64,000 bases of DNA from Mycoplasmatota bacterium (GTDB lineage Bacteria > Bacillota_I > Bacilli_A > MAG-NZ), in NCBI GenBank assembly GCA_018394315.1, contig CP074575.1:124001-188000 (forward strand), given 5' to 3'. Below, one piece after another: positions 7,942 to 28,867 of this stretch (positions are counted from its first letter, which is position 1; every line of letters begins with the position of its first letter). The notes under the pieces are model-generated. The model searched no databases. It saw only the letters and a program-made list of their open reading frames with translations, and was not told the DNA's origin. The position numbers and the translations under genes were made by a program.

Positions 7942-8466
7942 TTATTTCACATTTTTCTCAAAGTAACTTTGTTTATAACTACAAACAGGACAAACTAACG
8001 GAGCATTAGGTCCATTATGAAGATGTCCACAGTTAATACACTTCCATTCACTTGCATTGCCTTCAAAAAACTTCACAGCATTTAAGTCGTTGAGTAGTGA
8101 CTGATATCTATCTTCATGTTTATGTTCGATTATGGCTACTTGCTCAAAAAGTCTTCCTATATCATCAAAGCCTTCTTCAAATGCATCTTGAGCGAATTGT
8201 TTATACATCTCAGTCCACTCATAGTTTTCACCATTAACTCCATCTTGAAGATTTTCAGCAGTACTCTTTATCCCATGAATAAATCTATACCAAATTTCTG
8301 CATGAGCCTTTTCATTGTCTGCAGTTTCTTTAAAGATATCTGCAATCTGCTCATATCCTTCTTCTCTTGCTTTCTTCTCGTAGTAAGAGTACTTGTTCCT
8401 TGCTTGTGATTCTCCAGCAAAAGCAACTATTAAGTTATTTTCAGTTTTTGTATTTTTAAGTTCCAT
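7942..8466 (-). CDS. rbr: Rubrerythrin
   Basis: AFAGESQARNKY, ExxH motifs, C-terminal CxxC...CPVC rubredoxin domain. Confidence 0.95.
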   Translation of the reverse strand: MELKNTKTENNLIVAFAGESQARNKYSYYEKKAREEGYEQIADIFKETADNEKAHAEIWYRFIHGIKSTAENLQDGVNGENYEWTEMYKQFAQDAFEEGFDDIGRLFEQVAIIEHKHEDRYQSLLNDLNAVKFFEGNASEWKCINCGHLHNGPNAPLVCPVCSYKQSYFEKNVK

Positions 8467-8572: not shown

Positions 8573-9712
8573 TCAAATTGAGTCTCTTAGTTTTAGTAGT
8601 TTAGCTATATTTATAGATGTTAAGTATAAATTTTCTTTTGTAGAAGCCATTATTTTATCTAGAGAATCTACTCGATTCACTACAGAAAAAACAGCATCAA
8701 ATCCATTATCAAGTAACGTTTCAACAGAATCACCAAATACTGCTGAAATTCCTATACAATTTATTCCTTTTTTCTTTGCTCTTCTAGCTACTCCAATAGG
8801 TGCTTTATTCATGATTGTTTGTGAATCAAATCTTCCTTCTCCTGTAATTACTAAATCACAACCATCGATTAATTCATCAAACTTCAGGAAATCAAGTACA
8901 ATATCGATTCCGCTTTCTAGTTTCCCGTTAAGAAAAGTCATTAGACCAGCTCCAAGTCCTCCTGCTGCACCAGCTCCAGGCACATTTATTATATCTTTGT
9001 TTAGGTCTCTTTGAATTACTTCAGCTAGTCTAGATAAGTTTTGATCCATAACTTTAACCATATCAGAGTTTGCACCCTTTTGAGGTCCATAAACATATGA
9101 TGCACCATTAAGGCCAACTAGAGGATTATCAACATCACAAGCAACAATTATCTCAGTATTTGTTATCCTATTATCTAGATTTGTTACATCAATTGAATGT
9201 AAATTGCTAAGTCCCTCATTATTATTTTCTATTGGTAGGCCTGATTCATCTAAGAAACGTACCCCTAATGCACTTGCCATTCCGATACCACCATCATTAG
9301 TAGCACTACCACCTATACCAATGATTATCTTTTCTACACCATTTTCCAGTGCATCTAAAATCATTTGCCCTGTCCCATAGGTAGATGTTATCAATGGGTT
9401 TCTTTTATCTATAGGAACTAATCCTATCCCACTTGCGGTAGCCATCTCAATAAAAGCAGTTTTTGAATCGCCACTTATACCATATATCGCATTTACTTCA
9501 TCTGAAATTGGTGATAGTACTTTAACATTAATTAATCTACCTTCAGTAGCATCTATTAATGATTCAACAGTGCCTTCTCCACCATCTCCTATTGGGATAA
9601 CTTTAATATCAGATTCGGGTATACAATCCTTAAAACCTTTTTCGATTACTTGTCCAACTTCTAACGAAGATAGAGATTCTTTATATGAGTCACTAGCAAT
9701 TATTATTTTCAT
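8573..9712 (-). CDS. garK: Glycerate kinase
   Basis: DSYKESL, DGGEG, GGSATNDGG, GAAGGLG, TGEGRFD. Confidence 0.93.
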   Translation of the reverse strand: MKIIIASDSYKESLSSLEVGQVIEKGFKDCIPESDIKVIPIGDGGEGTVESLIDATEGRLINVKVLSPISDEVNAIYGISGDSKTAFIEMATASGIGLVPIDKRNPLITSTYGTGQMILDALENGVEKIIIGIGGSATNDGGIGMASALGVRFLDESGLPIENNNEGLSNLHSIDVTNLDNRITNTEIIVACDVDNPLVGLNGASYVYGPQKGANSDMVKVMDQNLSRLAEVIQRDLNKDIINVPGAGAAGGLGAGLMTFLNGKLESGIDIVLDFLKFDELIDGCDLVITGEGRFDSQTIMNKAPIGVARRAKKKGINCIGISAVFGDSVETLLDNGFDAVFSVVNRVDSLDKIMASTKENLYLTSINIAKLLKLRDSI

Positions 9713-9724
9713 ATTTCTTTCCTT

Positions 9725-11074
9725 TTATAACAGAATTAATCCTAAGATCAATGTTGTAATTATTGATGCAATACCCATAAATAATGTAGCAATCGAATGT
9801 GTCTTATATGCAGTTTGAGTATCCATTCCTGCAGTCTGTGATACTACCCAGAAATAACTATCGTTAGAGTGTGAAATTGTCATAGCACCAGCACCAATAG
9901 CCATTACAGTCAACACAGCACCAATTTCGCTACCTAATCCTAATGCAGGTAGTAATGGAGCAACTATAGATGAAGTTACAACCAATGCAGTAGTTGATGA
10001 ACCTTGTGCAGTTTTAAGTGCAGCAGCAATAATGAATGGTACTAATAACCCTACTGATAATACTGATAAATTATCACCAATATATCCAGCTATAGTAGTC
10101 GCTTTGATCGCGGCACCAAACGCACCACCAGCAGCTGTAATTAATAATATAGGAGCAGCGATTCTAATTCCAGTATTTACAATATCGTTAAATGTAGATT
10201 TTGAATCTTTAAGTAATGGTAAAGCAGTAAATAAACCAATTAATAATGCAGTTGTAGGTTTCCCTAAAAAGTTAAACATTTGATAAATAGTTCCTTCACC
10301 AATTGGCTTAGCAGGTAAGTTAACTATCGTACCAAGCGAAATTAATAATACTGGCAATAAGATAGGTAAGAATGCCATGAAAGTTGATGGTAAAACACCA
10401 TAATTTTCTTCAATAATTTCATCATCTAAGTCAACAGATAATACTGAGTCATCAACTCTTTTTCCGATGAATTTTGCATAAATGTATCCTGCAGTAAGAG
10501 CTACTAAAGATACAAACACTCCAAATAGGATAACTAATCCTAATGAGTTTTCAATACCTAAGTTCCCCGCTGCAGCAATAGGCCCTGGAGTTGGTGGAAC
10601 TAGAGTATGCGATGCATATAAACCAACTGATAGGGCAACAGTCATCGTAACCATTGAAGATTTTGAAATTTTAGCAAGTGATTTTTTCAAAGGTGCTAAA
10701 ATAACATAACCAGAGTCACAAAACACTGGAATTGAAACTAACCAACCAACAATCCCCATAGCTAATGTTGGATTCTTTTTCCCAACAGTTTTTAAAGCAA
10801 AGTTCGCCATAGTAATTGCAGCTCCAGATTTTTCTAATATTACACCAATTATCGTACCTAAAATAATAACGATACCAATGTAAGCTAATAAACCTCCGAA
10901 TCCACTTCTTATTACACCATCTATATCACTAACTTTAACTCCCCCTAGTAGAGCGAAAAAGTAAGCTGATAATAAAATTGCTAAGAATGGGTGTAATTTC
11001 ACTTTATTAATCAAGAAGATCATTAAAGCAATAGTAATAACTAATAAAATTACTAAACCAAATCCTGTAAACAT
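9725..11074 (-). CDS. GntP-family permease (likely D-glycerate)
   Basis: LHPF, PVFCDSG, PPTPGP, AQGSSTTA, SHSNDSYFW; between cdaR and glycerate kinase. Confidence 0.9.
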   Translation of the reverse strand: MFTGFGLVILLVITIALMIFLINKVKLHPFLAILLSAYFFALLGGVKVSDIDGVIRSGFGGLLAYIGIVIILGTIIGVILEKSGAAITMANFALKTVGKKNPTLAMGIVGWLVSIPVFCDSGYVILAPLKKSLAKISKSSMVTMTVALSVGLYASHTLVPPTPGPIAAAGNLGIENSLGLVILFGVFVSLVALTAGYIYAKFIGKRVDDSVLSVDLDDEIIEENYGVLPSTFMAFLPILLPVLLISLGTIVNLPAKPIGEGTIYQMFNFLGKPTTALLIGLFTALPLLKDSKSTFNDIVNTGIRIAAPILLITAAGGAFGAAIKATTIAGYIGDNLSVLSVGLLVPFIIAAALKTAQGSSTTALVVTSSIVAPLLPALGLGSEIGAVLTVMAIGAGAMTISHSNDSYFWVVSQTAGMDTQTAYKTHSIATLFMGIASIITTLILGLILL

Positions 11075-11165
11075 TATAAATTCCTCCTTCTAAATTTAGT
11101 TAATTTTATCATTTAAACAATTTTAGATAAATTGTCTCGGTAGCCAAAAAAAAGCGATTTCATTG

Positions 11166-12212
11166 TTAATATTTTGTCTGAATCGACAATAGAGATAATC
11201 TAATTTTAATAAGATCATCAATATCCTTTAGGTTACAAGACGTAATTTCTTCGATTCTCTTTAATCTATATTTAAGTGTATTAACATGAATAAATAAATC
11301 ATCTGCACTTTTTGAAAGTGAAAGCTTATTTTTAATAAATGAATCAAAGGTTTTCACTAGTAACTCATTATTATTTAATTCAATCCCTTCAGTGAAAAAG
11401 TTAGATAAATTACTATCGCTTTTATTAAGTTTAAAGAAAAAGTAGTCTAACCTATGTTCCTTACATAAGTACAACTGTTTATTAGTGATTCGGTATTTCT
11501 CTATATAGTTTATTATTTTATATTCTAAAGCAACCTTAGAAAAATCAATAATCCTTGAGATAATAGCTTTGTGACCTGATTTTTCAATGTTATCGATTAT
11601 TTTACTAATTTTTTCTTCACTATCACTAGTTATTATTACTATTTTCTTATCATTCATTGAAGCTTTAATAAAACTTACACCTTCTAACAATCCACTAATC
11701 TTTGCATTAGGCTTGATGAACTTTACTATTAAATTGAATTCTTCTCTGATAAAGTTCATGGCCTGCAGTTTTCTATTTATTAAATCACTGTTAATTAAGT
11801 CAAAGAGTATTTCTAAAACAACCTGCTTTTCATATTTATCTATATCACTTTTCTTCTTTGCGACAAATTGTTGTGTTATAAGACTTTCAAGACTTAGTTT
11901 AAGAATTTCTGAAAAAACTCCTACTTCATCAGGGTTACCTGTAATACCAACTGCACCTATTACTTTACCTTCAGAGTGTACAGGCAAATTTATGCCGGGT
12001 TTTACGTTACTTGACTCAGACTCATAAACCGCATAATTCTTTACCTCTCCTTTTATAATAGAATGTGCAAAAGCATGATATTTGCCCACTCTACTTAAAT
12101 CACTAGAACCCACAATAATACCATTAACATCAAAAATATTTACGTTATGTTTGATAAGTCCACTTAATCTCGTTGCTATATCTATTAATATTTCTTTTTC
12201 TAGTCCAACCAT
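11166..12212 (-). CDS. cdaR: CdaR-family sugar-diacid regulator
   Basis: N-terminal diacid-recognition domain (NVNIFD..GIIVGS, GINLP, GITG) and C-terminal PucR HTH (LFIHVNTLKYRL). Confidence 0.88.
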   Translation of the reverse strand: MVGLEKEILIDIATRLSGLIKHNVNIFDVNGIIVGSSDLSRVGKYHAFAHSIIKGEVKNYAVYESESSNVKPGINLPVHSEGKVIGAVGITGNPDEVGVFSEILKLSLESLITQQFVAKKKSDIDKYEKQVVLEILFDLINSDLINRKLQAMNFIREEFNLIVKFIKPNAKISGLLEGVSFIKASMNDKKIVIITSDSEEKISKIIDNIEKSGHKAIISRIIDFSKVALEYKIINYIEKYRITNKQLYLCKEHRLDYFFFKLNKSDSNLSNFFTEGIELNNNELLVKTFDSFIKNKLSLSKSADDLFIHVNTLKYRLKRIEEITSCNLKDIDDLIKIRLSLLSIQTKY

Positions 12213-12240: not shown

Positions 12241-12268
12241 AAAAAAATCACCTCTAAAAGAGATGATT
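12241..12268 (-). terminator. Terminator ending the ort-ora-arc-alr operon
   Basis: Minus strand AATCATCTC-tttta-GAGGTGATT followed by a T run. Confidence 0.7.
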
Positions 12269-13334
12269 AAAATCGATAGTTATTCATTTTAATTACTTCA
12301 CCATTTTTCTTATATACCCTTGGAACTCTATCAGAAATTGAACAAACTATTTCGTAGTTGATGGTATTTAAGTCAATAGCTAACATATCAACAGTAATAT
12401 TATCATTGATTAAGGCAACAATATCATTTTTCTTGATTGTGTCATCAACTAAAATCATCAATTGGTCCATACAAACATTCCCTACTATTTTATATTGTTT
12501 GTTATTAATTTCTACGCTTCTTCCCTTATGGTATCTTAAAAACCCATCAGCATAACCTATAGGAATTGTAGCGATAAATGAATCCATAGTAGCCGTAAAT
12601 GTTGTGCCATATCCTACTGATTCACCTTTATTTATTTTCTTAACGTTAGTTACCCTTGAATATAGCGAAAAAGCTTGTTTTAGTTCTACTGGTAATTTTC
12701 CTTCGTAAGGGCTTAAGCCATACATAGCAATACCCAATCTACCTGCAGTAAAAAAGTTACGATAAGCTAGCATCCCAGCACTATTATTAACATGAATAAG
12801 GTTTTTATCTAGGTCTAACTCATTAAGCTTTGCAACTTGATTCTCATAATAAACATCATCACTTCCCGCAGTAGCTAAATGAGTATAAATACCTTCTAAA
12901 TTTAAATTTTTAGATTTATTGATTTTTTTAATAATTTCTTTAATCTCGTTAGTATCCCTAAAACCTATTCTATTCATTCCTGTATCAATTTTTAGTTGAA
13001 CATTTAAAAAACCATCATAATCTATATCGTCAATAATCGTTAAAGAGATATCATTTTCACTAGCTAAGTCAAAATAATCTTCGCTAGTATATCCAAGAAC
13101 TAGTATAGGTGCAGTGAAATATTTCCTAAGTCTTAAAGCCTCATCTAAGAAGGCTACAGCTAAATGCGTAGCCCCAGCAGATAAAGCAGCCTCAGCAACT
13201 TCTAAATCACCATGACCATAACCATTTGCTTTTACAACTGCATAAAGTTTGTCATAATCAGTATAATTTTTTATAACACTTACGTTGTGCTTGATACGAT
13301 CTAAATCTATCTCAGCCCAAGTGTCACGAAACAT
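12267..13334 (-). CDS. alr: Alanine racemase
   Basis: AVVKANGYGHG PLP lysine motif, DTGMNRIG, VGYG, GNVCMDQ. Confidence 0.95.
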   Translation of the reverse strand: MFRDTWAEIDLDRIKHNVSVIKNYTDYDKLYAVVKANGYGHGDLEVAEAALSAGATHLAVAFLDEALRLRKYFTAPILVLGYTSEDYFDLASENDISLTIIDDIDYDGFLNVQLKIDTGMNRIGFRDTNEIKEIIKKINKSKNLNLEGIYTHLATAGSDDVYYENQVAKLNELDLDKNLIHVNNSAGMLAYRNFFTAGRLGIAMYGLSPYEGKLPVELKQAFSLYSRVTNVKKINKGESVGYGTTFTATMDSFIATIPIGYADGFLRYHKGRSVEINNKQYKIVGNVCMDQLMILVDDTIKKNDIVALINDNITVDMLAIDLNTINYEIVCSISDRVPRVYKKNGEVIKMNNYRF

Positions 13335-14341
13335 TATTTTAAAGTCGCATACATTACAGCTTTAATAGTATGCATTCTATTTTCAGCTTCCTGGAATACA
13401 ACAGAATGTTCACTCTCAAAGACTTCATCAGTTACTTCCATTTCACCAGTAGCCACTTTTTGATATCTTCTACCTAATTTAGATGACATTTCTCTACCAA
13501 CATCAGTCTGTGAATCATGGAATGCTGGTAAACAGTGCATAAAGATAACATCATCTTTAGCATTCTTAATCATTTGCATATCCACTTGATAATCTGCTAA
13601 TAATTTAACTCTTTTTTCCCATACTTCAGTTGGTTCACCCATAGATACCCAAACATCAGTGTATATAACATCTGCATTTAAAGTACCTTCTGCAACGTCT
13701 TCAGTGAAAGTAAGTTTAGCTCCTGTTTCTTTTCCAATTTGTCTACATTTATCAATCAACTCTTGATCAGGCCATAAGCTTCTTGGTGCTAATGCAGTAA
13801 AGTCCATACCCATTTTAGCTGCACCAATCATTAATGAATTACCCATATTGTTTCGAGCATCACCTACATAAGTAAACTTAACGCCTTCTAAAGTACCTTT
13901 ATATTCTAAAATCGTTAAGAAGTCCGCTAATATTTGTGTCGGATGATACATATCTGTTAAACCATTCCATACAGGTACACCAGCATATTTACCTAATGTC
14001 TCAACATCAGATTGTTTATATCCTCTAAATTCAATACCATCGTACATTCTACCAAGTACTCTTGCCGTATCGGCAACAGACTCTTTTTTATTCATTTGAG
14101 ATCCGTTTGGTCCTAAATATGTTACACCCATTCCTAAATCCATCGCTCCAACTTCAAATGCACAGCGAGTTCTAGTCGAATCCTTTTGGAAAAGAATAAC
14201 GATATTTTTGTCTGTAAGTACTTTATGTGGTATTCCATCGTACTTCTCTTTTTTAAGTCTCGTAGACAAATCTAACAGCTTCTTGATTTCTTCTGGAGTG
14301 TAATCCAGCAATGTAATAAAACTTCTACCTTTAAAACTCAT
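13334..14341 (-). CDS. arcB: Ornithine carbamoyltransferase (catabolic by context)
   Basis: [21 protein letters not shown]; directly follows arcA. Confidence 0.95.
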
Positions 14342-14360
14342 TTTAAATCCTCTCTTTCAG

Positions 14361-15548
14361 TTATTCTCTAATTAATGGCATACTCATGCATCTAGGCCCA
14401 CCACGTCCACGTGATAATTCACTAGATGGTATAACATGAATCTTTACACCATTTTCTACTAAGAGTTTATTAGTAACCGTATTTCTTGAATATACAATTA
14501 CTTCTCCAGGAGCAATAGCTAATGTATTTGCTGCATCGCTCCATTGTTCTCTTCTTGAGTCAATATAATCGCCACCACCACATTTTATCAGTGTGATATC
14601 TTTTTTTAGATAGTGGGATAAAATATTCTCTAAGGTATCTTTAATTTCTTTTATTTTTAATCTTCCTCTTTCATTTGTGATTTCAAACACTTCGGTCGGA
14701 CCAATAATTCCACCATGTAGAGTGAATTTATCATGATCCACTTGTGTTAATACAGTATCTAAGTGCATGAAAGCACGAGAATTAGGAATATAAAATGCTA
14801 AAATTGTTTGAAAATTTGTTCTATTGAATAAAGTTTTACCAATTTTTTCTACAGCCTCAGGTTGAGTTCTTTCACTAATACCAACAGCTATAATCTCCTC
14901 ATTTAGGATTAATATATCTCCACCTTCAATAGATAATTTTTCATCTCGGTTATAAAATCTCTCAGTATGCATAAAATCAGGATGATATTTGAATATATAG
15001 TCAGCATAAATAGTTTCACGATTTCTAGTTTCTGTTCTCATATGATTGATAGAAACACCTTCACCAATACTCGTAAATGGATCTCTAGTAAAGTATAAGT
15101 TTGGCATAGGGTCAGTTGCGAATGGATACTTATCAATATAATCTAATAATCTTCTTCTCGGTAAAGATAACTCACTATTTCTAATACCACCCATAGTTTT
15201 TAGAACAAGTTCTAAGTTTGGTAATTTAACTAAATATTCATAAGCAGCTATCCTTTTAGTATGAGAGTTCATATTTGCTTCACTTAAGAATTGGTACAAG
15301 AATTGTTCCTTTACTCTGTTATCTTCTAAAACTTCAGCCATTAATTCTTCTAAATATACTACTTCCACACCATTTTCTCTTAAAACATTTGAAAAAGCAT
15401 CATGCTCTTCTTGAGCAAGTTCTAACCATGGAATATCATCAAATAGTAATTGATCTAAAAGACTAGGAATCAAATTATCTAATTCACTACCTGGTCGGTG
15501 TAACAACACTTTTTTTAATCTACCAATTTCTGAATGTACCTTTATCAT
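14361..15548 (-). CDS. arcA: Arginine deiminase
   Basis: SEIGRL, FTRD, EGGD, MHLDT and [14 protein letters not shown] catalytic motifs. Confidence 0.97.
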
Positions 15549-16558
15549 CCGATTACCTCTTTCTTAACATATGGACTTGTAGCTAGTCTTAGTAAAGCAC
15601 CATATTTTAACTTAAATTTAATAATATCTCCTACTTTGTAATCACCAGCAATAATCAAGTGATCACTACTAGCTCCTAAAATTTCTCCATCAAAAATGAG
15701 CCCAGATTCATCAACATCTTGTTTTCCTACCGCAACTATAGCTCTCATAATGTTCCCTTTATCAATAAATAATGGCTTATTACCAAATGCATCCATTCCA
15801 ATTTCTCCGACTGGATGACTTGGTTTTTCTTTTACTTCTACAACCTCAGCCTCTAAAGTAAACACATCATCATATAATCCATCTAGTATTTCTCCAAAAG
15901 CAGTTTCACGTCCAAGAACTATCGCTTCACCAAGCCTTAAGTTATTTATAAGTGATAGATCTTCTAAATATAAACTAGAAGAATTTCCACCTGAAATAAC
16001 TTCAATTTTGGCACCCTTACTCTCAATTGCTTCTCTTAATTCATTCAATAACTCTAAATGCTTTCTATTAGGTATAATACCTCCATAACATGTTAGATTA
16101 GTACCTATTCCGTATAAGCTTAGATTATCTAAGTCCAAAATTTCTTCAATAAAATTCAATTCCTCTTCAAACCATATCCCTTCTCTAAGGTCTCCTAGGT
16201 CAAACATCAGAATGATTTTTATCTTCTTGTTGTGTAGTTTTGCTTCATTATTAAGCTTTTTTATCGTATCCATTTCACTAATCAAGACGATATCAGTAAC
16301 TTGGACAACTCTATCCAACTCGCTTTGCATTGGTATTCTAAGTAAGACTTTCGGTAAATCTGTACTTATCTTTTCCAAATTATCGATTCTTGAATCAGCC
16401 ACAAAACTAATTCCACCGTCAATCATTGCTTTTACTGCCTCTTCCATAGCACAAAACACCTTAGTAACACCCATTACTTTTATTGGATAAAGTTTATTAA
16501 CTAAAAATTCAGTATTATGTTTTAGTTTTTCTAAATCTACGATCAGTCTTGGATACAT
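15545..16558 (-). CDS. orr: Ornithine racemase
   Basis: Fold-III PLP racemase: [32 protein letters not shown]; within the ora cluster. Confidence 0.9.
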
Positions 16559-17841
16559 TAAACTAAACTTCCCTTCAATAATCTAAATGCAACTTCTGGA
16601 TACTTTTTACTTAGTGCTCCTAAAGAAGCCATAATATATTTGCTGTCCACTAAAATCTTAGCGTTAATAGGTAATAATTTCTTAGTGTTTTCCTTTAAAA
16701 CTTCAGTAACTATTTTTTTACCGTTTAAGTTAACAAGAGCTCCACCTGTTAAAACTATATATTTAACATCCGTTAAGTCCTTACCCTCAACAAGTTTCTT
16801 TACTCCACTACTTGTATAAAATTCTTTATATTCTCCAGCATGTCTATTTAGTGACTCTTTAACAGCTGTGTAGGTTAACTTTGAGACAAGCTCAAATTCA
16901 TCATTTGATTTAGGAATAGGACTATAATTTTTAAGCAAATAATCCAAATTAGAAAAACCACTTAAATCAGTCAATTCCACTAAATTATCTTTATTAACAT
17001 ATACACCCAAATCACCCTCTACAGTACGTTTTGCATTAGGTTCTGGAGTGATTACATTATCATTTATATAACTAGTTACAGAATGAATATCTGTAGTGGC
17101 ACCACCTACATCAATTACTATTAGATCACCCATCTTAGAAGCAAGTAACTTTGCACACTCCATAACTGCTCCCGGAGTTGGTATAATACTATCAGTAAGT
17201 GTTTTAATATTATCCATTCCTTTAGCATGAATTATATTATCTTCAAAAACCTTATGAATTACCTTTCTAGTAGGTTCTACGTTTAAGTTATCAATCTTCG
17301 GGTATACATTATCTACACATGTTACATCTTTAAGAATGCACTTGATTTCTTCAGTGTTTTCTAAGTTACCCGCATATATGATTGGTACATCTAAACTTAG
17401 ATTCTTAATCATTTCTGCATTATAAAGAGCGGTTTCCCTTTCTCCATAATCTACTCCACCAGCTAATAAAATGATATTTGGGTTAATCTTATTAATCTTT
17501 TCTAAATCAAAGGGTTTTAGTTTGCCAGCTGTAATAAAATGAATATTAGCACCTGCCCCTAATGCTGCTTCTTTTGCAGCCTTAACAGTCATATCATATA
17601 CAAGTCCATGTACAGTCATTCTAAGACCACCAGCAGCACTACTTGTCGCAAACATTTCTTTATACTTAAAATCATTAACTTTATATAAATTTTGGAAATC
17701 TTCTATAGCACCATTAACTCCGATAGTTACATCTTCTACTGTAGTAGGATGAACCCCTTGACCAATTAACCCTATATCAAAATTAAATACATTGACTAAA
17801 GTTATAGTGCTACCAATTTCAACTATCAAAAAGTCGTACAT
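16558..17841 (-). CDS. oraF: GlmL-like ATPase, ornithine aminomutase reactivating factor
   Basis: EIGSTIT, SSAAGGL, DVGGATTD, RTVEGDLG; follows oraE. Confidence 0.85.
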   Translation of the reverse strand: MYDFLIVEIGSTITLVNVFNFDIGLIGQGVHPTTVEDVTIGVNGAIEDFQNLYKVNDFKYKEMFATSSAAGGLRMTVHGLVYDMTVKAAKEAALGAGANIHFITAGKLKPFDLEKINKINPNIILLAGGVDYGERETALYNAEMIKNLSLDVPIIYAGNLENTEEIKCILKDVTCVDNVYPKIDNLNVEPTRKVIHKVFEDNIIHAKGMDNIKTLTDSIIPTPGAVMECAKLLASKMGDLIVIDVGGATTDIHSVTSYINDNVITPEPNAKRTVEGDLGVYVNKDNLVELTDLSGFSNLDYLLKNYSPIPKSNDEFELVSKLTYTAVKESLNRHAGEYKEFYTSSGVKKLVEGKDLTDVKYIVLTGGALVNLNGKKIVTEVLKENTKKLLPINAKILVDSKYIMASLGALSKKYPEVAFRLLKGSLV

Positions 17842-20006
17842 TATTTTCTATTTTTGATTAAAGATGTTGCTACATGAAGTCCCTTTGTTCCTCTACCGAA
17901 TGCATCATCTACACCCGTTTCTAAAGCTAAGTCCCTAGAAACTTGAGTACCACCGGCAATAATCTGGATCTTATCCCTAACCCCTTTTTCGGTAGCATAA
18001 TCATGCGCCTTTTTCATGGTACGGTAATGAATATCATCATGAGAAATTATTGTAGACATTAAAACAGCTTCTACATCTAATTCAATGGCTGCATCAATTA
18101 ATTTTTCTATCGAACAAGATGTTCCTAAATAATGAATATCTATTCCATATTTCTCGATACCACCATGTTTAATATCGATAATTTCTCTTAACCCTACGGA
18201 ATGTTCATCTTCACCCACTGTAGCAGCTACTATAGTCATAGACTTTTTCTTAATCGCATCACGAATTTCGTCTTCACTTAAAACAGGAATTTTTTTTGGT
18301 ATTACTAATTTTGAAATATCGATATCAAAATCAACTTTACCTTTAAGTTGAATTCTACTTCCCTCAACTGGATGTAAAACTTCTTTATGAATTACCTCAA
18401 CCTCACTTAGATTCATTATCTTACCAATCTCGATAGCTGCATATTCTGCAGTACGAATATCAGTAGGTAAGGTAATATCCACCTGAACAGTACCATCTGC
18501 AAGCCACTCAACTTCTGGTTTCAGTAAATTAGAGTTTCTATACTTCTTTGTTTCATCTAATCTTAAATATACATTATCAGATTCATCCAACTCATCTATA
18601 AATACGATTTTTTCAGGTTTTTCTAAAGTACAACCATCTATTAAGTCAGATGGATTATCCACTCCGTACTGAGCAAAGTTATTATATCCAAAATGTGCTG
18701 ACACTGGAGCTAAATAATCTTCATCTCTTTCATAAACACTTCCACTACTTAATCCACCATCTATTTCACGAGCAATACCATCAGCATTTCGTTCTGGATA
18801 CTCTCCTGAATCAACGAACATTCCAGCTTCTACAGCTTCGAAATATCCACCGTATTCTAAAACCTCTTCCATAAACAATATCGCACGCTCTTGAATTTCT
18901 CTTTTCGTCTCATATAAATAACCTGAGTCTTTCAATTCAACCATGCTTAAAATGTCATCCATACCAATCATTGCTTGTTTAGCTGTATCAGTAGCTTCAA
19001 TGTTATACATATGCCAAGGAACATTTCTACCTTCATCAGGTGTGATTGTTGATTGAATATCAGCACTCGTTAACTTTGATATCAATAAATTTAAAACATG
19101 AGTAACAGTCGCTTCACGAGTGCTTGAATCCATATACTTAGTATTCATCTGAGCTCTCATTTTATAGTCAGAGAAGAATTCTCTTAAAGCAACTGCATAC
19201 GGTAAATTCAATTTTAAATCAGGTGCAGGAGGTGCAGCTGGAGGTACAGTACTTAAAGCTATATCCTCTTTATTCATACCTGACCTTTCACTAAACACAG
19301 AGTTAATCGCATGTTGAACTAATAATTCAGGCATAACTTTCCATGCATCTCTTGCTGTAGCGTTTGCATTATGCGCGCCATCAATTTGAAGAATATTAGC
19401 TGATGCCATAATCTTCTTACTTTCAGCAGCATCTACAAACGAACGAATCATATTTATATTTCTATATAAAACATTATATTGAGGGTCTTGGTGAGCTCCG
19501 TTAACACCCTCTTCTGCAAACATAACTGCAATCTCTGGACCAGCAACACCAGATACGTATGAATGATAATTTAGTGGTCTTCCCACTTCTTCTTCAATCA
19601 TGTCTAGAGCTTTTCTTTGAGCTCTAACTTGTTTTCTAGTTACTGGGATTCCCCCGATTCCTTGAGGAGTACCTTCAAGCAATCCATCAAAATGTGATTG
19701 TCCTGCAGTTCTAATAACCATCAAATGATCAGCACCATGCCAGGCTGCCATTCTCATTCTTCTTATATCATCCTCAAACCTTCCTGATGCAATTTCAGTA
19801 GTGATAACCGAATCAGGTTGAGGGTCTATATCATTTAAATTTCTCGCTCCAGGTAAAGCGATACTATTCTTCATTGGTTTTGATGCATCTTGATAAGTAA
19901 ATGGTCCATACTCAAAACTACCTTTTTCACGCCATGTCCATCCTTTTCTCTTTGGACGGTAATTTTCTAAATTAGATAAAATCTCTCTTATATCTAGTTT
20001 CTTCAT
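17841..20006 (-). CDS. oraE: D-ornithine 4,5-aminomutase large subunit (AdoCbl/PLP)
   Basis: EIASGRFEDDIRRMRMAAWHGADH, B12 motif DEHSVG, PLP lysine in IDIKHGG. Confidence 0.96.
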   Translation of the reverse strand: MKKLDIREILSNLENYRPKRKGWTWREKGSFEYGPFTYQDASKPMKNSIALPGARNLNDIDPQPDSVITTEIASGRFEDDIRRMRMAAWHGADHLMVIRTAGQSHFDGLLEGTPQGIGGIPVTRKQVRAQRKALDMIEEEVGRPLNYHSYVSGVAGPEIAVMFAEEGVNGAHQDPQYNVLYRNINMIRSFVDAAESKKIMASANILQIDGAHNANATARDAWKVMPELLVQHAINSVFSERSGMNKEDIALSTVPPAAPPAPDLKLNLPYAVALREFFSDYKMRAQMNTKYMDSSTREATVTHVLNLLISKLTSADIQSTITPDEGRNVPWHMYNIEATDTAKQAMIGMDDILSMVELKDSGYLYETKREIQERAILFMEEVLEYGGYFEAVEAGMFVDSGEYPERNADGIAREIDGGLSSGSVYERDEDYLAPVSAHFGYNNFAQYGVDNPSDLIDGCTLEKPEKIVFIDELDESDNVYLRLDETKKYRNSNLLKPEVEWLADGTVQVDITLPTDIRTAEYAAIEIGKIMNLSEVEVIHKEVLHPVEGSRIQLKGKVDFDIDISKLVIPKKIPVLSEDEIRDAIKKKSMTIVAATVGEDEHSVGLREIIDIKHGGIEKYGIDIHYLGTSCSIEKLIDAAIELDVEAVLMSTIISHDDIHYRTMKKAHDYATEKGVRDKIQIIAGGTQVSRDLALETGVDDAFGRGTKGLHVATSLIKNRK

Positions 20007-20368
20007 TAGAATTTCTCCTTAAGCAAATCTATGTGCTTACCTTCAACTAATTCCATCCCTGCTTGGCGTATAGGAATTCCTAATTTAGAAGAAATGAAGT
20101 ATACAACATGTCCAGCACCTTTTTTCATTAAATCAAGATCAATAACCTTATCGACTATTTGCTTAATTTCAATTGAAGAGAATCCCATTCTAAGTAATAC
20201 ACTTCTTTCAATTGAAGGAGAAGTGTTATTTTTAGCTAAATCAACTAATGGATCAACGATTTTATTAGCTAACTTCCAGAATCTTTCCTTAAGTTCTTTA
20301 TCGCTTAAATTCTTTAGTTCATTACGACGATTTAAAAAATCATCTTCTCGTCTAACTACTTTACTCAT
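20006..20368 (-). CDS. oraS: D-ornithine 4,5-aminomutase small subunit
   Basis: TSPSIERSVLLRMGFSS signature. Confidence 0.95.
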   Translation of the reverse strand: MSKVVRREDDFLNRRNELKNLSDKELKERFWKLANKIVDPLVDLAKNNTSPSIERSVLLRMGFSSIEIKQIVDKVIDLDLMKKGAGHVVYFISSKLGIPIRQAGMELVEGKHIDLLKEKF

Positions 20369-20387
20369 CTAAAATCTCCTTATTAAA

Positions 20388-21239
20388 TTATTTTACTTTG
20401 GGAATAAACCCTAGACAAATTGCACCTGGACCAGAATGAGATCCAACTGCTGGTGTTAATGGATAATCAAAAACATTATGTATATCTTTTTCCTTAAGTA
20501 ACTCTCTAATAACAGTGCATTGTTCTGGATTATTTGCGTGTATCAATATATATTCACCATCAATACCTTTTGTTTCTTCTAAGACTTTCTCTACAACTCT
20601 ATTTATAGCCTTTTTAAGTGTTCTAATCTTCTCTACAGAAACAACTTTTCCATCTCTAGTTAATTCTAATAAGGGCTTGATTTTCATCATACTCCCAATA
20701 AAGCCACTTGCATTAGACAAACGTCCGTTCTTAACTAGATATTTTAATTCAGGAACCGCAAAAACAAGTCTAGCGTTTTCTTGAATATAATCTAAAACAG
20801 GAATAATTTCTTCAATGCTTTTCCCTTCACTAATCATTCTTGAAGCTTCTATAGCTATGTATGCCTCAAGGTATGCTACAGTTTTTGAGTCATAAACTGT
20901 AACTTTTAAGTCTTCTATCATATCAGCAGCAATCAAACAACCTTGATATATTCCACTTAAAGCAGATGAAATTGTTATAACTAAAATCTCTTCATATCCT
21001 TTTTCACGACACTTCTTAAAAACTTCTAATATCGAACCTGTCGATGGTTGTGCCGTTTTTGGCATTACATCAGGATTTGACTCTATTTTTCTGTAAAACT
21101 CTTCAGCAGTTATTTCTAAATAATCCACAAATTCTTCTTCACCAAAAAGTACTGTTGATCTAATCACTTCAATATCATAAGGATGATCAACATAATCAAC
21201 ACCTGCATTGGTACATACTACTACACCTATTTTGCTCAT
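20388..21239 (-). CDS. DegV-family fatty-acid-binding protein
   Basis: PKTAQPS, ISSALSG, LKYLVKNGR, KIKPLL, HSGPG. Confidence 0.93.
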   Translation of the reverse strand: MSKIGVVVCTNAGVDYVDHPYDIEVIRSTVLFGEEEFVDYLEITAEEFYRKIESNPDVMPKTAQPSTGSILEVFKKCREKGYEEILVITISSALSGIYQGCLIAADMIEDLKVTVYDSKTVAYLEAYIAIEASRMISEGKSIEEIIPVLDYIQENARLVFAVPELKYLVKNGRLSNASGFIGSMMKIKPLLELTRDGKVVSVEKIRTLKKAINRVVEKVLEETKGIDGEYILIHANNPEQCTVIRELLKEKDIHNVFDYPLTPAVGSHSGPGAICLGFIPKVK

Positions 21240-22646
21240 TTAAATCTCCCCCAATAATTTTTCTAATTTATTTTTATCGATCCTCAATTCTTCACATAAA
21301 TAATCTGTGTCAACTAGATTATTTTTCGTTAAAGAGTGTACTTTTATTACACTTCTTAAATAACTTTTTCTTAAATCATCTATATTTAGCTTTCTTGCGC
21401 TTATTAGTGATGGATTTCTTGGTAAAATAATTGATTTACCTGGAACTTCATCCTTAGGATTTCCAAATTCAACATTGATTCCATTTTCAATAGCAAACGA
21501 TAATTGTGGTTGAATATGCTTACCAGCACCAGTATATTCTGTTTCCTGAACGACAATTATTTCGTCTTCTTTCATCTTTTGCGCTAAGCTAAACGCAACA
21601 GCTAACGAAGTATTTCCTGCTGGACCTCTTTCTAAACCCTCAAGCTCAGCGAGCATTTCAGTAACAAAAAAGACTTCTCCTTGAGATACAGTATAATACT
21701 CATCCATATATCTTAAAGGTCTACCTGCACTTCTTGGAACATCACTTCTGTCTGGATTTATACTAAATGGTATCCCAAATCCAGTATGACCAGTTGTAAA
21801 TGATTTCTTATTAAAATCTTTATCACTTGCCATATGTAATCCACTTAAATTGACACTAGCAGCAATAACCAAACTATCAGCGTTAGCTCTTAAAAGTCCT
21901 CTAGCTGTACCAGTTAAATTTCCACCACCAGCGTTCGTACAAACGACAGACTCAGGAAACTTACCATATTTTTCCTTAGTTTGTATTGCTAACTCATAAC
22001 CTAATGTTTCTACTCCACCAATACCAAATGGAGTGTATAAACTAGCGTTAAAATAACCAGTTTCCTCTAAAAGTAATAATAATTGATAAAAGAGTTCTGG
22101 ACCAACAGTTAGTCTTACAACTTCAGCACCAAACGCTTCACACTTTCTGGCTTTTTCTATGATTTCGGGTTGACCCTTTAATTCAGAATCATAACATTCC
22201 TGTACAATAATACATTTAAGACCATGTTTAGCAGCTTGAGATGCTACAGCAGCTCCGTAATTCCCACTAGTAGCCGCAATAACACCCTTAAATCCTAATT
22301 TCTTAGCATGATACACACTAATTGATGCTCTTCTTGCTTTGAATGATCCGCTAGCATTACACGCTTCATCTTTAAGTAAGATTTTTGCACCATATCCCGG
22401 TTTTGCATATTTTCTAGCAAGCTTAGTAATATTTTTAAGATCTAACAATGGAGTGTTCCCTACACCATTATCTCTTTGAATAGTTTCCATTAAATCATAA
22501 TCATATCCAGTACTATCCATCATTTTTTCAAAATCAAAACCAATTCCATCATTTTCAAATTCTTTATAGTCCAATCCAACAGACTTTAGTAATATTTCAT
22601 TTTTTCTAGCCATTATAGCTTCATATGTTTTATCCATCAATTTCAT
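21240..22646 (-). CDS. ortB: 2-amino-4-ketopentanoate thiolase beta subunit
   Basis: NASGSFKARR, ATSGNYG, SFTTGHTGFG, QETEYTGAGKH. Confidence 0.95.
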   Translation of the reverse strand: MKLMDKTYEAIMARKNEILLKSVGLDYKEFENDGIGFDFEKMMDSTGYDYDLMETIQRDNGVGNTPLLDLKNITKLARKYAKPGYGAKILLKDEACNASGSFKARRASISVYHAKKLGFKGVIAATSGNYGAAVASQAAKHGLKCIIVQECYDSELKGQPEIIEKARKCEAFGAEVVRLTVGPELFYQLLLLLEETGYFNASLYTPFGIGGVETLGYELAIQTKEKYGKFPESVVCTNAGGGNLTGTARGLLRANADSLVIAASVNLSGLHMASDKDFNKKSFTTGHTGFGIPFSINPDRSDVPRSAGRPLRYMDEYYTVSQGEVFFVTEMLAELEGLERGPAGNTSLAVAFSLAQKMKEDEIIVVQETEYTGAGKHIQPQLSFAIENGINVEFGNPKDEVPGKSIILPRNPSLISARKLNIDDLRKSYLRSVIKVHSLTKNNLVDTDYLCEELRIDKNKLEKLLGEI

Positions 22647-22920
22647 CTCTTAAAATTTCCTTGATTTTCATAATATGCGAAACATAATTACCATAACCTA
22701 ATTCATAAGTTGGATTTTCCTTAATCAATATACCCTTAACAACTCTACCTGTAATAGTCTTAATGCTAACTTCTTCTTTCAAATCAGCATCATTGACCAA
22801 AAAACCTTTTACAAACATTTCATAAGGAACTTTCTTTGTCTCTTCCGGAATTTTTGCAGTTCTATCTTCAGAACTTAACACAATAATATGTACTTCTACA
22901 TATGAATCTTTTCGTATCAC
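22630..22920 (-). CDS. ortA: 2-amino-4-ketopentanoate thiolase alpha subunit
   Basis: PEETKKVPYEMFVKG, TITGR, NPTY; probable GTG start at 22920; overlaps ortB. Confidence 0.9.
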   Translation of the reverse strand: MIRKDSYVEVHIIVLSSEDRTAKIPEETKKVPYEMFVKGFLVNDADLKEEVSIKTITGRVVKGILIKENPTYELGYGNYVSHIMKIKEILRDEIDG

Positions 22921-22998
22921 ATTATCACTTCTTTCATACAGAATTTTCCACTTTTTATTATACATTGAAATTATTTTTATGTATATGCTTTATAGAAG

Positions 22999-23020
22999 AA
23001 AAAAAGCGACTATTGTCGCT
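22999..23020 (-). terminator. Terminator after the MFS gene
   Basis: Minus strand AGCGAC-aata-GTCGCT followed by a T run. Confidence 0.75.
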
Positions 23021-27428: not shown

Positions 27429-27455
27429 AAAAGGATGCAAAAATTGCATCCTTTT
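27429..27455. terminator. Bidirectional terminator
   Basis: AAAAGGATGCAA-aaa-TTGCATCCTTTT. Confidence 0.8.
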
Positions 27456-28494
27456 AATCTAGATAATTTCTCATGTCGCCCATGATAGCTCTTGGTACAG
27501 GTAAATCTAGCATTGTTTTTAATCCTGGTTTTGCATTAATTATATGAGGAATCATATTAACACACATTGCTATTGTTCCAATTCCACCATCAACTTCTGG
27601 ATTTATACTCATATTGATTTCAGGAGTACCTGTTAATTTAATATAATCACCAGTATGCGTACCTTCCATTTCTGGTTCAATTTGCTGTGGATGAATCATA
27701 TCTATTTTCAGTTCGCCATCAACATATCCTTGTCCAGTCATATTCACACCAGCAACATCATTAGCTTTTGCAAATCCATATGGTGACTTTCTATCAATAT
27801 TAGTAATAATAGGTTTCATTTGCTGTTTAAATTCAGAAACTTCCCAACCAACTGCTTCTGCAATCATACCAACACTTTCAGCAAATCCAACATGTCCTGC
27901 CATCGTTCCGTCTTCAACTTTATTCATAAAAGTATCAACTTTCATTCCAACACCTTGCTCTTCCATTACTGTTGGACCAAATGGTGATAAACTGTTAACA
28001 CGTTTACATTCTACTTTAGTTAAGTCAGTCATAGCACCAGTTAAACATACGGCTAATAAATCCATCATTAATCCAGGATTAATACCTGTACCTAAAATAG
28101 ATACATTATTTTCTTTAGCTATCCTATCTAATTCTTTAGCTAATTCTGGTTCCTGAGCTTTTGGGTAAGCCATTTCTTCAGCTGTTGAAATAATATTAAT
28201 ACCTTTTTCTAAAACTAGTTTAAGTCTTGGAAAAGCTTTACTTGTAAACGAATCAGTAGCGGTAATACAAACATCGATATCTTGATTCAATACTTCATCA
28301 ATATTATCATTTATGAAAACTTCACTTCTTCCATTTCTTTCAACACCTAGTAACTCATAAAGCTCTTTTCCTACTAACTCTTCATTAATATCACATACGC
28401 CGACAACTTCAACACCAGTTTTTGTAACTAATGATTCAACTGCACCTCGACCCATAGCACCGAAGCCCCATACTGCAACTTTAATATTTTCCAT
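27454..28494 (-). CDS. ord: 2,4-diaminopentanoate dehydrogenase
   Basis: WGFGAMG Rossmann motif, STAEEM, GTGINPG, NSLSPFG, HPQQ, LPVPRA. Confidence 0.93.
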   Translation of the reverse strand: MENIKVAVWGFGAMGRGAVESLVTKTGVEVVGVCDINEELVGKELYELLGVERNGRSEVFINDNIDEVLNQDIDVCITATDSFTSKAFPRLKLVLEKGINIISTAEEMAYPKAQEPELAKELDRIAKENNVSILGTGINPGLMMDLLAVCLTGAMTDLTKVECKRVNSLSPFGPTVMEEQGVGMKVDTFMNKVEDGTMAGHVGFAESVGMIAEAVGWEVSEFKQQMKPIITNIDRKSPYGFAKANDVAGVNMTGQGYVDGELKIDMIHPQQIEPEMEGTHTGDYIKLTGTPEINMSINPEVDGGIGTIAMCVNMIPHIINAKPGLKTMLDLPVPRAIMGDMRNYLD

Positions 28495-28504
28495 ATAAAT
28501 CTCC

Positions 28505-28867
28505 TTAATTTATTTTTGCTCCAAATGGTAGCAACGCTAACAAAGCAAATTTAAAATGTTGCTTCCCAAATGGAATACCAATTATAGTTATTGAGAGTAA
28601 TATCCCTATTACTATATGACATAAACATAATTCCCAGCCAAATAGTATTAACCAGATAATATTTCCAATTAATCCACCGACTCCAAACTCTCCTACTTGT
28701 ACGTCTCGTCCAAATGGCCAAAGAACTAATTTACTAATTTTAAAACACTGTAGACCAAATGGAATACCTATAATAGTTATTGAAAAAAGCAAACCCGTTA
28801 AGAACCAAAATATAGCTGATAATAATCCACCAAAAATCAACCATATTAAGTTACCTATTAAACTCAT
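28505..28867 (-). CDS. yccF: YccF-domain membrane protein
   Basis: Duplicated GN(L/I)IW...ITIIGIPFG...PFG units. Confidence 0.88.
   Translation of the reverse strand: MSLIGNLIWLIFGGLLSAIFWFLTGLLFSITIIGIPFGLQCFKISKLVLWPFGRDVQVGEFGVGGLIGNIIWLILFGWELCLCHIVIGILLSITIIGIPFGKQHFKFALLALLPFGAKIN

Follow-up and report, generated by a model that had tools for sequence, protein, structure and literature searches.

The window analysed here is a stretch of 64,000 nucleotides (nt) from the genome of a Mycoplasmatota bacterium (assembly GCA_018394315.1, contig CP074575.1, positions 124,001 to 188,000 of the forward strand); positions below are those of the window unless a contig or locus is named. It carries ten genes, ortA-ortB-degV-oraS-oraE-oraF-orr-arcA-arcB-alr, which bring together the arginine deiminase (ADI) pathway, B12-dependent oxidative ornithine catabolism and an alanine racemase. 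The host genome, hereafter G000, consists of one contig of 2.17 Mb with 31% GC and is 93.6% complete. Two further genomes, G004 and G005, represent two other genera of its family (f1).

Organization of the operon

All ten open reading frames (ORFs) lie on the minus strand, at the positions given by a first-pass annotation of this DNA, and the tight coupling that it had claimed was recovered when gaps and overlaps were recomputed. From ortA to alr the junctions measure −17, 0, 19, −1, −1, −1, −4, 19 and −1 nt, with TAATG overlaps at 20006, 17841, 16558 and 13334 and a 4-nt ATGA overlap between orr and arcA (15545-15548).

The operon is bordered by two hairpins resembling intrinsic terminators, close to the positions first proposed (about 23010 and 12250). 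The upstream one (23005..23020, minus strand), followed by a U-tract, recurs at the corresponding position in both G004 and G005; it is predicted to terminate the upstream MFS gene and to insulate the operon. The downstream one (12246..12268, minus strand) has a 10-bp stem followed by a U-tract and overlaps the alr stop codon. These two ranked first among hairpin-plus-U sites when the entire operon was scanned for folds. The next-best candidates, at about 12753 in alr (−8.1 kcal/mol) and about 18064 in oraE (−6.1 kcal/mol), both have imperfect stems, and the scan gave no terminator at the orr/arcA junction.

A predicted sigma-A promoter, TATACA-17-TATAAT (22957..22985, minus strand), matches the consensus at 10 of 12 positions and is conserved in G004 and G005. 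Since the longest ORF would start at an ATG overlapping this −10 box, we placed the ortA start at the GTG at 22920, as had been done before. Promoter-like matches as a whole were at chance level (89 found, 93.4±9.2 expected); weak ones inside orr (15896) and arcA (15019) were indistinguishable from this background, and internal promoters were rejected. No Rfam family was found between positions 8000 and 32000 at gathering scores. Judged from sequence only, the proposal that the ten genes form one transcription unit is supported by their close coupling, the terminators on either side and the conserved promoter, as well as by the absence of a terminator between orr and arcA and by the chance level of internal promoter matches.

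A degenerate cre-like (catabolite-responsive element, CcpA) site is predicted to overlap the −35 box (22980..22993, minus strand). Using what we take to be the cre consensus, sites with at most one mismatch were present in 12 of 20 cluster leaders of relatives versus 24 of 91 other leaders from the same loci, and in 86 of the 816 leaders of G000. A CcpA-like LacI protein of G000 scored 285 bits, below the cut-off of 442. For the group as a whole, catabolite repression is plausible; for G000 it is uncertain.

Identification of the gene products

Identities were assigned with NCBIfam cut-offs, and with Pfam for OraS. OrtA, OrtB, OraE, ArcA, ArcB, Alr, DegV and the separately encoded Ord passed their cut-offs; Orr and OraF scored just below theirs, yet these families were their best matches.

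The gene ortA (22630..22920), with its GTG start, encodes the 96-amino-acid (aa) small subunit of 2-amino-4-ketopentanoate (AKP) thiolase (NF040739, 108.7 bits, cut-off 70), and ortB (21240..22646) the pyridoxal phosphate (PLP)-dependent large subunit (NF040741, 800.7 bits, cut-off 550), in which Lys103 lies within SGSFKAR, presumably the OrtB motif. The small subunit of D-ornithine 4,5-aminomutase is encoded by oraS (20006..20368; PF16552, OAM_alpha, 168 bits) and the large, adenosylcobalamin- and PLP-dependent subunit by oraE (17841..20006; NF040743, 1337.7 bits). OraE matches the Clostridium sticklandii enzyme (PDB 3KOW) over its full length, its His602 (B12) and Lys613 (PLP) corresponding to His618 and Lys629 of that enzyme. 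OraF, or Or-4 (16558..17841), is a GlmL-like putative mutase reactivase (NF040744, 585.6 bits, cut-off 600; TIGR01319 passed). For the ornithine racemase gene orr (15545..16558; NF040742, 429.7 bits, cut-off 480), Lys33 and Cys157 of the product were invariant in all six aligned sequences; that Cys and Lys form an acid-base pair in Orr is described in the accessible part of PMC13397332, which, with that of PMC3958899, provided the reference residues for these checks. No relative of solved structure was found for Orr at an E-value of 1e-5.

The adjacent genes arcA (14361..15548; TIGR01078, 495.1 bits, cut-off 489.1) and arcB (13334..14341; NF003286 and TIGR00658 passed) encode arginine deiminase and ornithine carbamoyltransferase (OTC). 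The motifs that we take to be catalytic were located in both proteins and the residues are intact, with Asp156, His262, Asp264 and Cys387 all present in ArcA. ArcB was the sole OTC found in the genome, the other matches (two YgeW-like proteins and PyrB) being about 25% identical. In the alanine racemase encoded by alr (12267..13334; TIGR00492, 300.6 bits), Lys35 and Tyr242, the acid-base pair of fold III racemases, align with the Geobacillus Alr structures.

The remaining gene, degV (20388..21239; TIGR00762), encodes a FakB-like fatty-acid-binding protein. It is present in the G004 operon and missing at the same place in G005, and no degV was found between ortB and oraS in the clusters of other families. 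It is probably a passenger, and a functional role was set aside on these grounds.

Steps encoded outside the operon

The gene for 2,4-diaminopentanoate dehydrogenase, ord (27454..28494, minus strand; NF040740, 496.9 bits, cut-off 400), lies 4.5 kb upstream of the operon, beyond other genes and the terminator, in a separate unit in which a yccF-like gene (28505-28867, PF03733) precedes it; it is also separate in G004 and G005. The single arcC (G000:C1:13017-13919) is 123 kb from the operon, and is likewise unlinked in G001, G004 and G005. The earlier claim of a co-regulated route needs correction here: with ord and arcC outside the operon, the route is not wholly co-transcribed.

Alanine dehydrogenase was not found in G000, nor was an ornithine cyclodeaminase or a PrdA-like match for the reductive ornithine branch. 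The genome contains two B12 mutases besides OraSE, and a cobalamin riboswitch precedes a DUF4430 gene.

Linkage of the arc and ora genes among relatives

We surveyed 151 genomes (G000 and 150 relatives), scoring arcA as linked when it lay within 12 kb of oraE on the same strand. Forty-two genomes had oraE, 33 of these also had arcA, and in 27 of the 33 the two were linked; the synteny check suggested at the outset shows that linkage is usual among relatives with both pathways. Four layouts were observed. The order of the window was found in four genomes of family f1, including G004 and G005 (that of G001 is split into two fragments). Eleven genomes of families f12 and f15 have ord-ortAB-oraSEF-orr-alr-arcABC, and eleven of families f4 and f17 have arcABC-ord-ortAB-oraSEF-orr, with alr in front in two. 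In one f14 genome (G107, L056) the order is alanine dehydrogenase (ald), a MerR-like regulator, arcA, ord, ortAB, oraSEF, pduO, orr and alr; the adjacent ald would complete a path from D-alanine to pyruvate. Among the six unlinked genomes, two show contig breaks in matching order, two have arcB in the ora cluster with arcA apart, and two have a separate arcAB-YfcC operon.

We also sampled 300 scored genomes of Clostridia, the class of Paratissierella segnis. Twenty-four had oraE and 14 of these had ADI, with the two on the same contig in none of the 14. No arcA was present in the 20 of the 24 oraE loci that were examined, several of which end at contig edges, nor near the genes of the eight loci retrieved with an Orr query (three in genome contigs, five in metagenome contigs).

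The linked ArcA proteins were rejected as one clade (approximately unbiased test, p = 3e-57; 26 versus 22 rows, 48 in total). This tree was built with a simple model after dropping six long-branch or edge rows and omitting three linked proteins cut by locus edges; the two contig-break cases were counted as linked, and the group, set by gene order, was tested after a first tree had been seen. As the linked proteins are not one clade, formation, loss or refilling of the link must have happened at least twice. On this result and on the existence of four layouts, we rejected the idea of one fused ancestral operon inherited unchanged. Repeated loss or gene replacement is also compatible with the tree.

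The joined layout had been thought not to be described. We found no published description of it, in a search that left out most subscription papers and supplements, and the accessible parts of PMC5686429, PMC11129491, PMC10982811, PMC12786226, PMC7761423 and PMC8397711 do not describe it. To that extent the claim stands, but the metabolic coupling is already on record for C. sticklandii (PMC3091704, in the part accessible), and the layout is common in relatives. What is new is the joined arrangement, frequent in this lineage and unseen in the sampled Clostridia; both pathways and their chemistry were known.

Several clusters contain additional genes. Five f15 operons encode, between ord and ortA, a 366-617-aa membrane protein whose C-terminal domain is of the Ion_trans_2 (potassium-channel-like) type (L047:15854-17707, L048:2860-4479, L049:15625-16983, L050:15726-16826 and L036:2274-3839), and a membrane protein of similar size occupies this position in G144. 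Just upstream of their arginine-ornithine operon, several genomes of f4 and f12 have a pair of weak OraE-like matches (L054, L059, L060, L160, L161, L162 and L164), probably subunits of lysine 5,6-aminomutase, with a PduO gene between in f12; B12-dependent amino acid fermentations appear to be clustered in these genomes. In L164 (G053), broken genes or sequencing errors have left three pieces of oraE and two of ord.

Distribution of ornithine antiporters

No ArcD/ArcE-type antiporter was found in the operon or the window, and none was recognised in the G000 genome, which gave one weak DcuC-family match and one APC permease far below the ArcD cut-offs. No NhaC homologue was detected in G000 by tblastn. 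None of the 27 linked clusters contained a YfcC, APC or NhaC antiporter, some of these loci ending at contig edges. Among the 26 genomes having arcA and no ora genes, 18 showed an arcA-arcB cluster, with an antiporter beside it in 14, none in three and one cluster cut off. In G033 and G047, where arc and ora are apart, YfcC stands beside arcAB. This contrast fits a replacement of export by consumption, and the proposal that ornithine is consumed rather than exchanged is supported by the lack of a recognised antiporter in both operon and genome.

The three antiporter-less arcABC clusters of genomes without ora genes contain, after arcC, a related soluble protein of 435-436 aa (L134:2699-4009, L147:9116-10423 and L151:2688-3998) with no NCBIfam match at 1e-30. 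Our guess is that it offers another way of using ornithine, for example as a decarboxylase.

Retention of alr in genomes without ddl

Of 42 relatives, 22 had alr within or next to the ora cluster, in four positions (after arcB, after orr, before arcA or before ord), and an alr-like gene was near ora in five of the 20 Clostridia loci. In the 150 scored genomes, those lacking ddl had kept alr in 17 of 17 cases with oraE versus three of 47 without it, one of these three genomes having a completeness of just 68%. Of the 17, 14 had alr within 12 kb of oraE. Within family f12, from which ddl is absent throughout, alr was present in all four genomes with oraE versus none of the eight without. G005, which has the gene order of the window, has no ddl and a single weak Mur-ligase-domain match, and the same was true of the three other ddl-less genomes tested. 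These distributions suggest an Alr function linked to ornithine breakdown in genomes where wall genes were not found.

In G000 itself, the check for a second alr that had been suggested was negative: the copy in the operon is the only one. The parallel check for wall genes was positive, with murC, murD, two murE, murF and mraY found along with ddl (with scores under the curated cut-offs for MurC, MurF and Ddl). A sole racemase in the presence of mur genes and ddl makes a purely catabolic Alr unlikely in this organism, where Alr would be the only recognised route from L-alanine to D-alanine for Ddl. In a quick Alr tree families were grouped and no single operon clade was formed. The window Alr grouped with the stand-alone Alr of G002, a genome of the same family with ddl and with neither oraE nor arcA (support 96, in this same quick tree and with a long G002 branch). 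The first-pass view of Alr as a catabolic enzyme is best borne out by the ddl-less relatives, but with a single alr, mur genes, ddl and no alanine dehydrogenase it is unlikely to hold in its pure form for G000.

Comparison with known systems

The six-gene core and its order are shared with the ord-ortA-ortB-oraS-oraE-or4(oraF)-orr(-nhaC) cluster of C. sticklandii (Acetoanaerobium) and Clostridioides difficile; a figure legend in the accessible part of bioRxiv 2020.01.04.894915 gives the C. difficile order as ord-ortA-ortB-oraS-oraE-ARF-orr-nhaC. Compared with this cluster, the operon has ord detached, lacks NhaC, has degV inserted and carries arcA-arcB-alr after orr. Its chemistry is that of arginine fermentation in C. 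sticklandii, where ADI feeds oxidative and reductive ornithine branches and where conversion of arginine through ornithine to acetate and D-alanine was already described (PMC3091704); in its accessible part, that paper neither assigns the genes to a single operon nor mentions an alanine racemase. C. sticklandii also has an arginine/ornithine antiporter and the proline branch.

With the ADI operons of Lactococcus, Streptococcus, Pseudomonas and mollicutes (arcABC plus ArcD/ArcE), the operon shares arcA followed by arcB, ArcC being encoded elsewhere in the G000 genome, and, in relatives, a cre-like site at the promoter. It differs from the canonical operons in having no exchanger and an unlinked arcC. 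According to the accessible part of PMC5300872, arcD or arcE was present in all of its 124 clusters, but these were defined by having one, and the text is silent on exchanger-less clusters.

A catabolic operon with an alanine racemase also recalls dadAX of Proteobacteria. There, DadX is a catabolic racemase that supplies DadA by converting L- to D-alanine; in the present operon, catabolism would run from D to L. The window Alr is not a DadX (152 bits, DadX cut-off 600), and there is no second, housekeeping alr.

Proposed pathway and alternative explanations

We consider it probable, from the gene content, that the operon is a catabolic unit that uses the ornithine made by ADI rather than exchanging it, in an anaerobic bacterium fermenting amino acids. 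The route proposed in the first-pass annotation is supported by enzyme families and active-site residues, from which the steps were assigned and through which we infer the flux. ArcA would convert arginine into citrulline and ArcB citrulline into L-ornithine and carbamoyl phosphate, a direction that we infer for ArcB from the adjacency of arcA; ArcC, from its unlinked gene, would turn carbamoyl phosphate into ATP. Orr would racemize L- to D-ornithine, OraSE with B12 and PLP, maintained by OraF, would form 2,4-diaminopentanoate, and Ord, also from an unlinked gene, would yield AKP, which OrtAB would cleave to acetyl-CoA and D-alanine. Alr would interconvert D- and L-alanine. The reducing equivalents from Ord probably pass to a selenoprotein glycine reductase encoded elsewhere, to form a true Stickland pair. 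In G000 the most likely role of Alr is dual, clearing D-alanine during arginine use and otherwise supplying D-alanine to Ddl; in relatives without ddl or Mur ligases only clearing would be left, so that alr would survive there.

For the mollicute-related Bacilli as a whole, we advance a broader proposal whose chances we judge to be even: that ADI was joined several times to B12-dependent ornithine oxidation, which replaced the exchanger, and that alr was recruited as the last step. As alr outlives peptidoglycan loss almost only together with this pathway, it would be a D-alanine-clearing enzyme in wall-less bacteria, while in walled members the operon would also provide wall D-alanine and, with carB missing, carbamoyl phosphate for pyrimidines. 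No new enzyme or chemistry is involved. The expected products of arginine in this large, poorly studied group of anaerobic Bacilli would be acetate, alanine and ammonia, not exported ornithine, and such cells would act as sinks for ornithine and consume B12 instead of being cross-feeders. What interests us most is that genomes without wall genes retain alr, probably on account of the joined pathway; this gives a testable reason for alr where ddl and Mur ligases are missing, and makes alr a poor sign of a cell wall.

Several observations weigh against this interpretation. The position of ord and arcC outside the operon weakens the case for co-regulation of the whole route. The cre-like site has three mismatches in G000 (none in G004, one in G005) and is degenerate in the very genome at issue. 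No cobalamin adenosyltransferase was found in G000, CobA giving a weak match only and PduO none (the EutT type was not searched). Kinship makes the genome counts overstate independence, and with a correction for it the antiporter contrast was not significant (four independent pairs on the ArcA tree, two as predicted, two uninformative and none against, p = 0.5). Moreover, an antiporter is also missing from three of the 18 arcAB clusters of genomes without ora, and G049 and G089 carry YfcC genes elsewhere. As to alr, the gene could have been kept in ddl-less genomes by hitch-hiking in the operon, and a strict motif search in the Alr proteins of such genomes recovered the PLP-lysine motif in 11 of 12 and the tyrosine motif in eight of 12. 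With no alanine dehydrogenase, the fate of L-alanine may, as in C. sticklandii, be simple excretion or use in protein synthesis.

Two alternatives concern Alr. It might be purely catabolic in G000, with wall D-alanine coming from OrtAB or not needed: alr closes a catabolic operon, with translational coupling to arcB, and is kept at the same position in ddl-less G005, and mur genes need not mean a wall, as Haloplasma contractile has a nearly complete peptidoglycan pathway and no visible wall (PMC7761423, accessible part). Nevertheless we find this unlikely, as alr is the only copy in a genome with ddl, murC, murD, two murE, murF and mraY, its product groups with the stand-alone Alr of G002, and no alanine dehydrogenase accompanies it. 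Conversely, alr might be a housekeeping wall gene that happened to land behind arcB and is functionally unrelated to the breakdown of ornithine. The single copy, the walled-type gene set and an Alr tree that follows families agree with this, as does the position of alr elsewhere or across a contig break in 17 of 25 genomes with both oraE and ddl. Its association, at four positions, with the ora cluster of 22 among 42 relatives, the alr-like gene near ora in some Clostridia loci and its oraE-dependent retention in ddl-less genomes (17/17 versus 3/47) make this quite improbable.

The other two concern the unit as a whole. The arcAB and ornithine genes might be transcribed separately, ADI serving only for ATP, pH or carbamoyl phosphate and ornithine leaving by an unrecognised exporter. 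The weak promoter-like matches in orr and arcA and the unlinked arcC and ord would suit such uncoupling, and a full pyrB-pyrC-pyrD-pyrF-pyrE set without carB might create a constitutive need for ArcAB, for which the accessible part of PMC13260591 offers a parallel in Thermococcus. But orr and arcA share 4 nt and no terminator separates them, internal promoter matches are at chance level and the arc-ora link recurs in four layouts and six families; we regard uncoupling as very improbable. Hardly credible at all is a mainly biosynthetic unit, in which ArcB would make citrulline from ornithine and the ora-ort genes would give wall D-alanine. It draws on ArcB being the only OTC and on the statement, in the accessible part of bioRxiv 2020.01.04.894915, that conversion of ornithine to alanine in C. 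difficile is able to support wall synthesis. It conflicts with the established function of ArcA, a hydrolase working toward citrulline, with the intact cluster of genomes lacking ddl and Mur ligases, and with the cre-like sites of cluster leaders (12/20 versus 24/91 in other leaders), as expected for catabolic genes. The catabolic use of ADI-made ornithine remains our preferred reading.

Further observations on the G000 genome

A pyrimidine gene set (pyrB, pyrR-like, pyrC, pyrK-like, pyrD, pyrF and pyrE) is located at G000:C1:941362-946999 (L170). The carB gene was present in one of five genomes tested and not found in G000, G005, G049 and G089. Possible sources of carbamoyl phosphate for pyrimidines are ArcB, ArcC and the two YgeW-like carbamoyltransferases; supply by ArcB where carbamoyl phosphate synthetase is missing is reported in PMC13260591, in the part accessible.

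Other amino acid fermentations are encoded in G000. L168 (345000-353500) and L169 (412700-417200) in G000:C1 contain lysine fermentation genes (2,3- and 5,6-aminomutases, beta-keto acid cleavage enzyme and CoA transferase) and a methylaspartate glutamate mutase route, giving three B12-dependent amino acid fermentations in a genome in which no adenosyltransferase was found. A glycine reductase cluster (L165, G000:C1:1613700-1621300) comprises GrdA and GrdB, read with TGA as selenocysteine (Sec), GrdC, GrdD and a GrdE-like protein; a second GrdE/GrdB-like pair lies near a BCCT transporter (G000:C1:231300-233700), and the genome has a tRNA-Sec. A polar amino acid ABC importer is encoded elsewhere in G000.

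Near-identical sets of genes, presumably ygeW/ygeY/ygeX-like, are found at G000:C1:62689-67794 and 185196-191150, the second within the far end of the window. Directly past the operon's terminator, positions 8573-12212 encode a CdaR-like regulator, a GntP-family permease and a glycerate kinase, an ordinary sugar-acid module.

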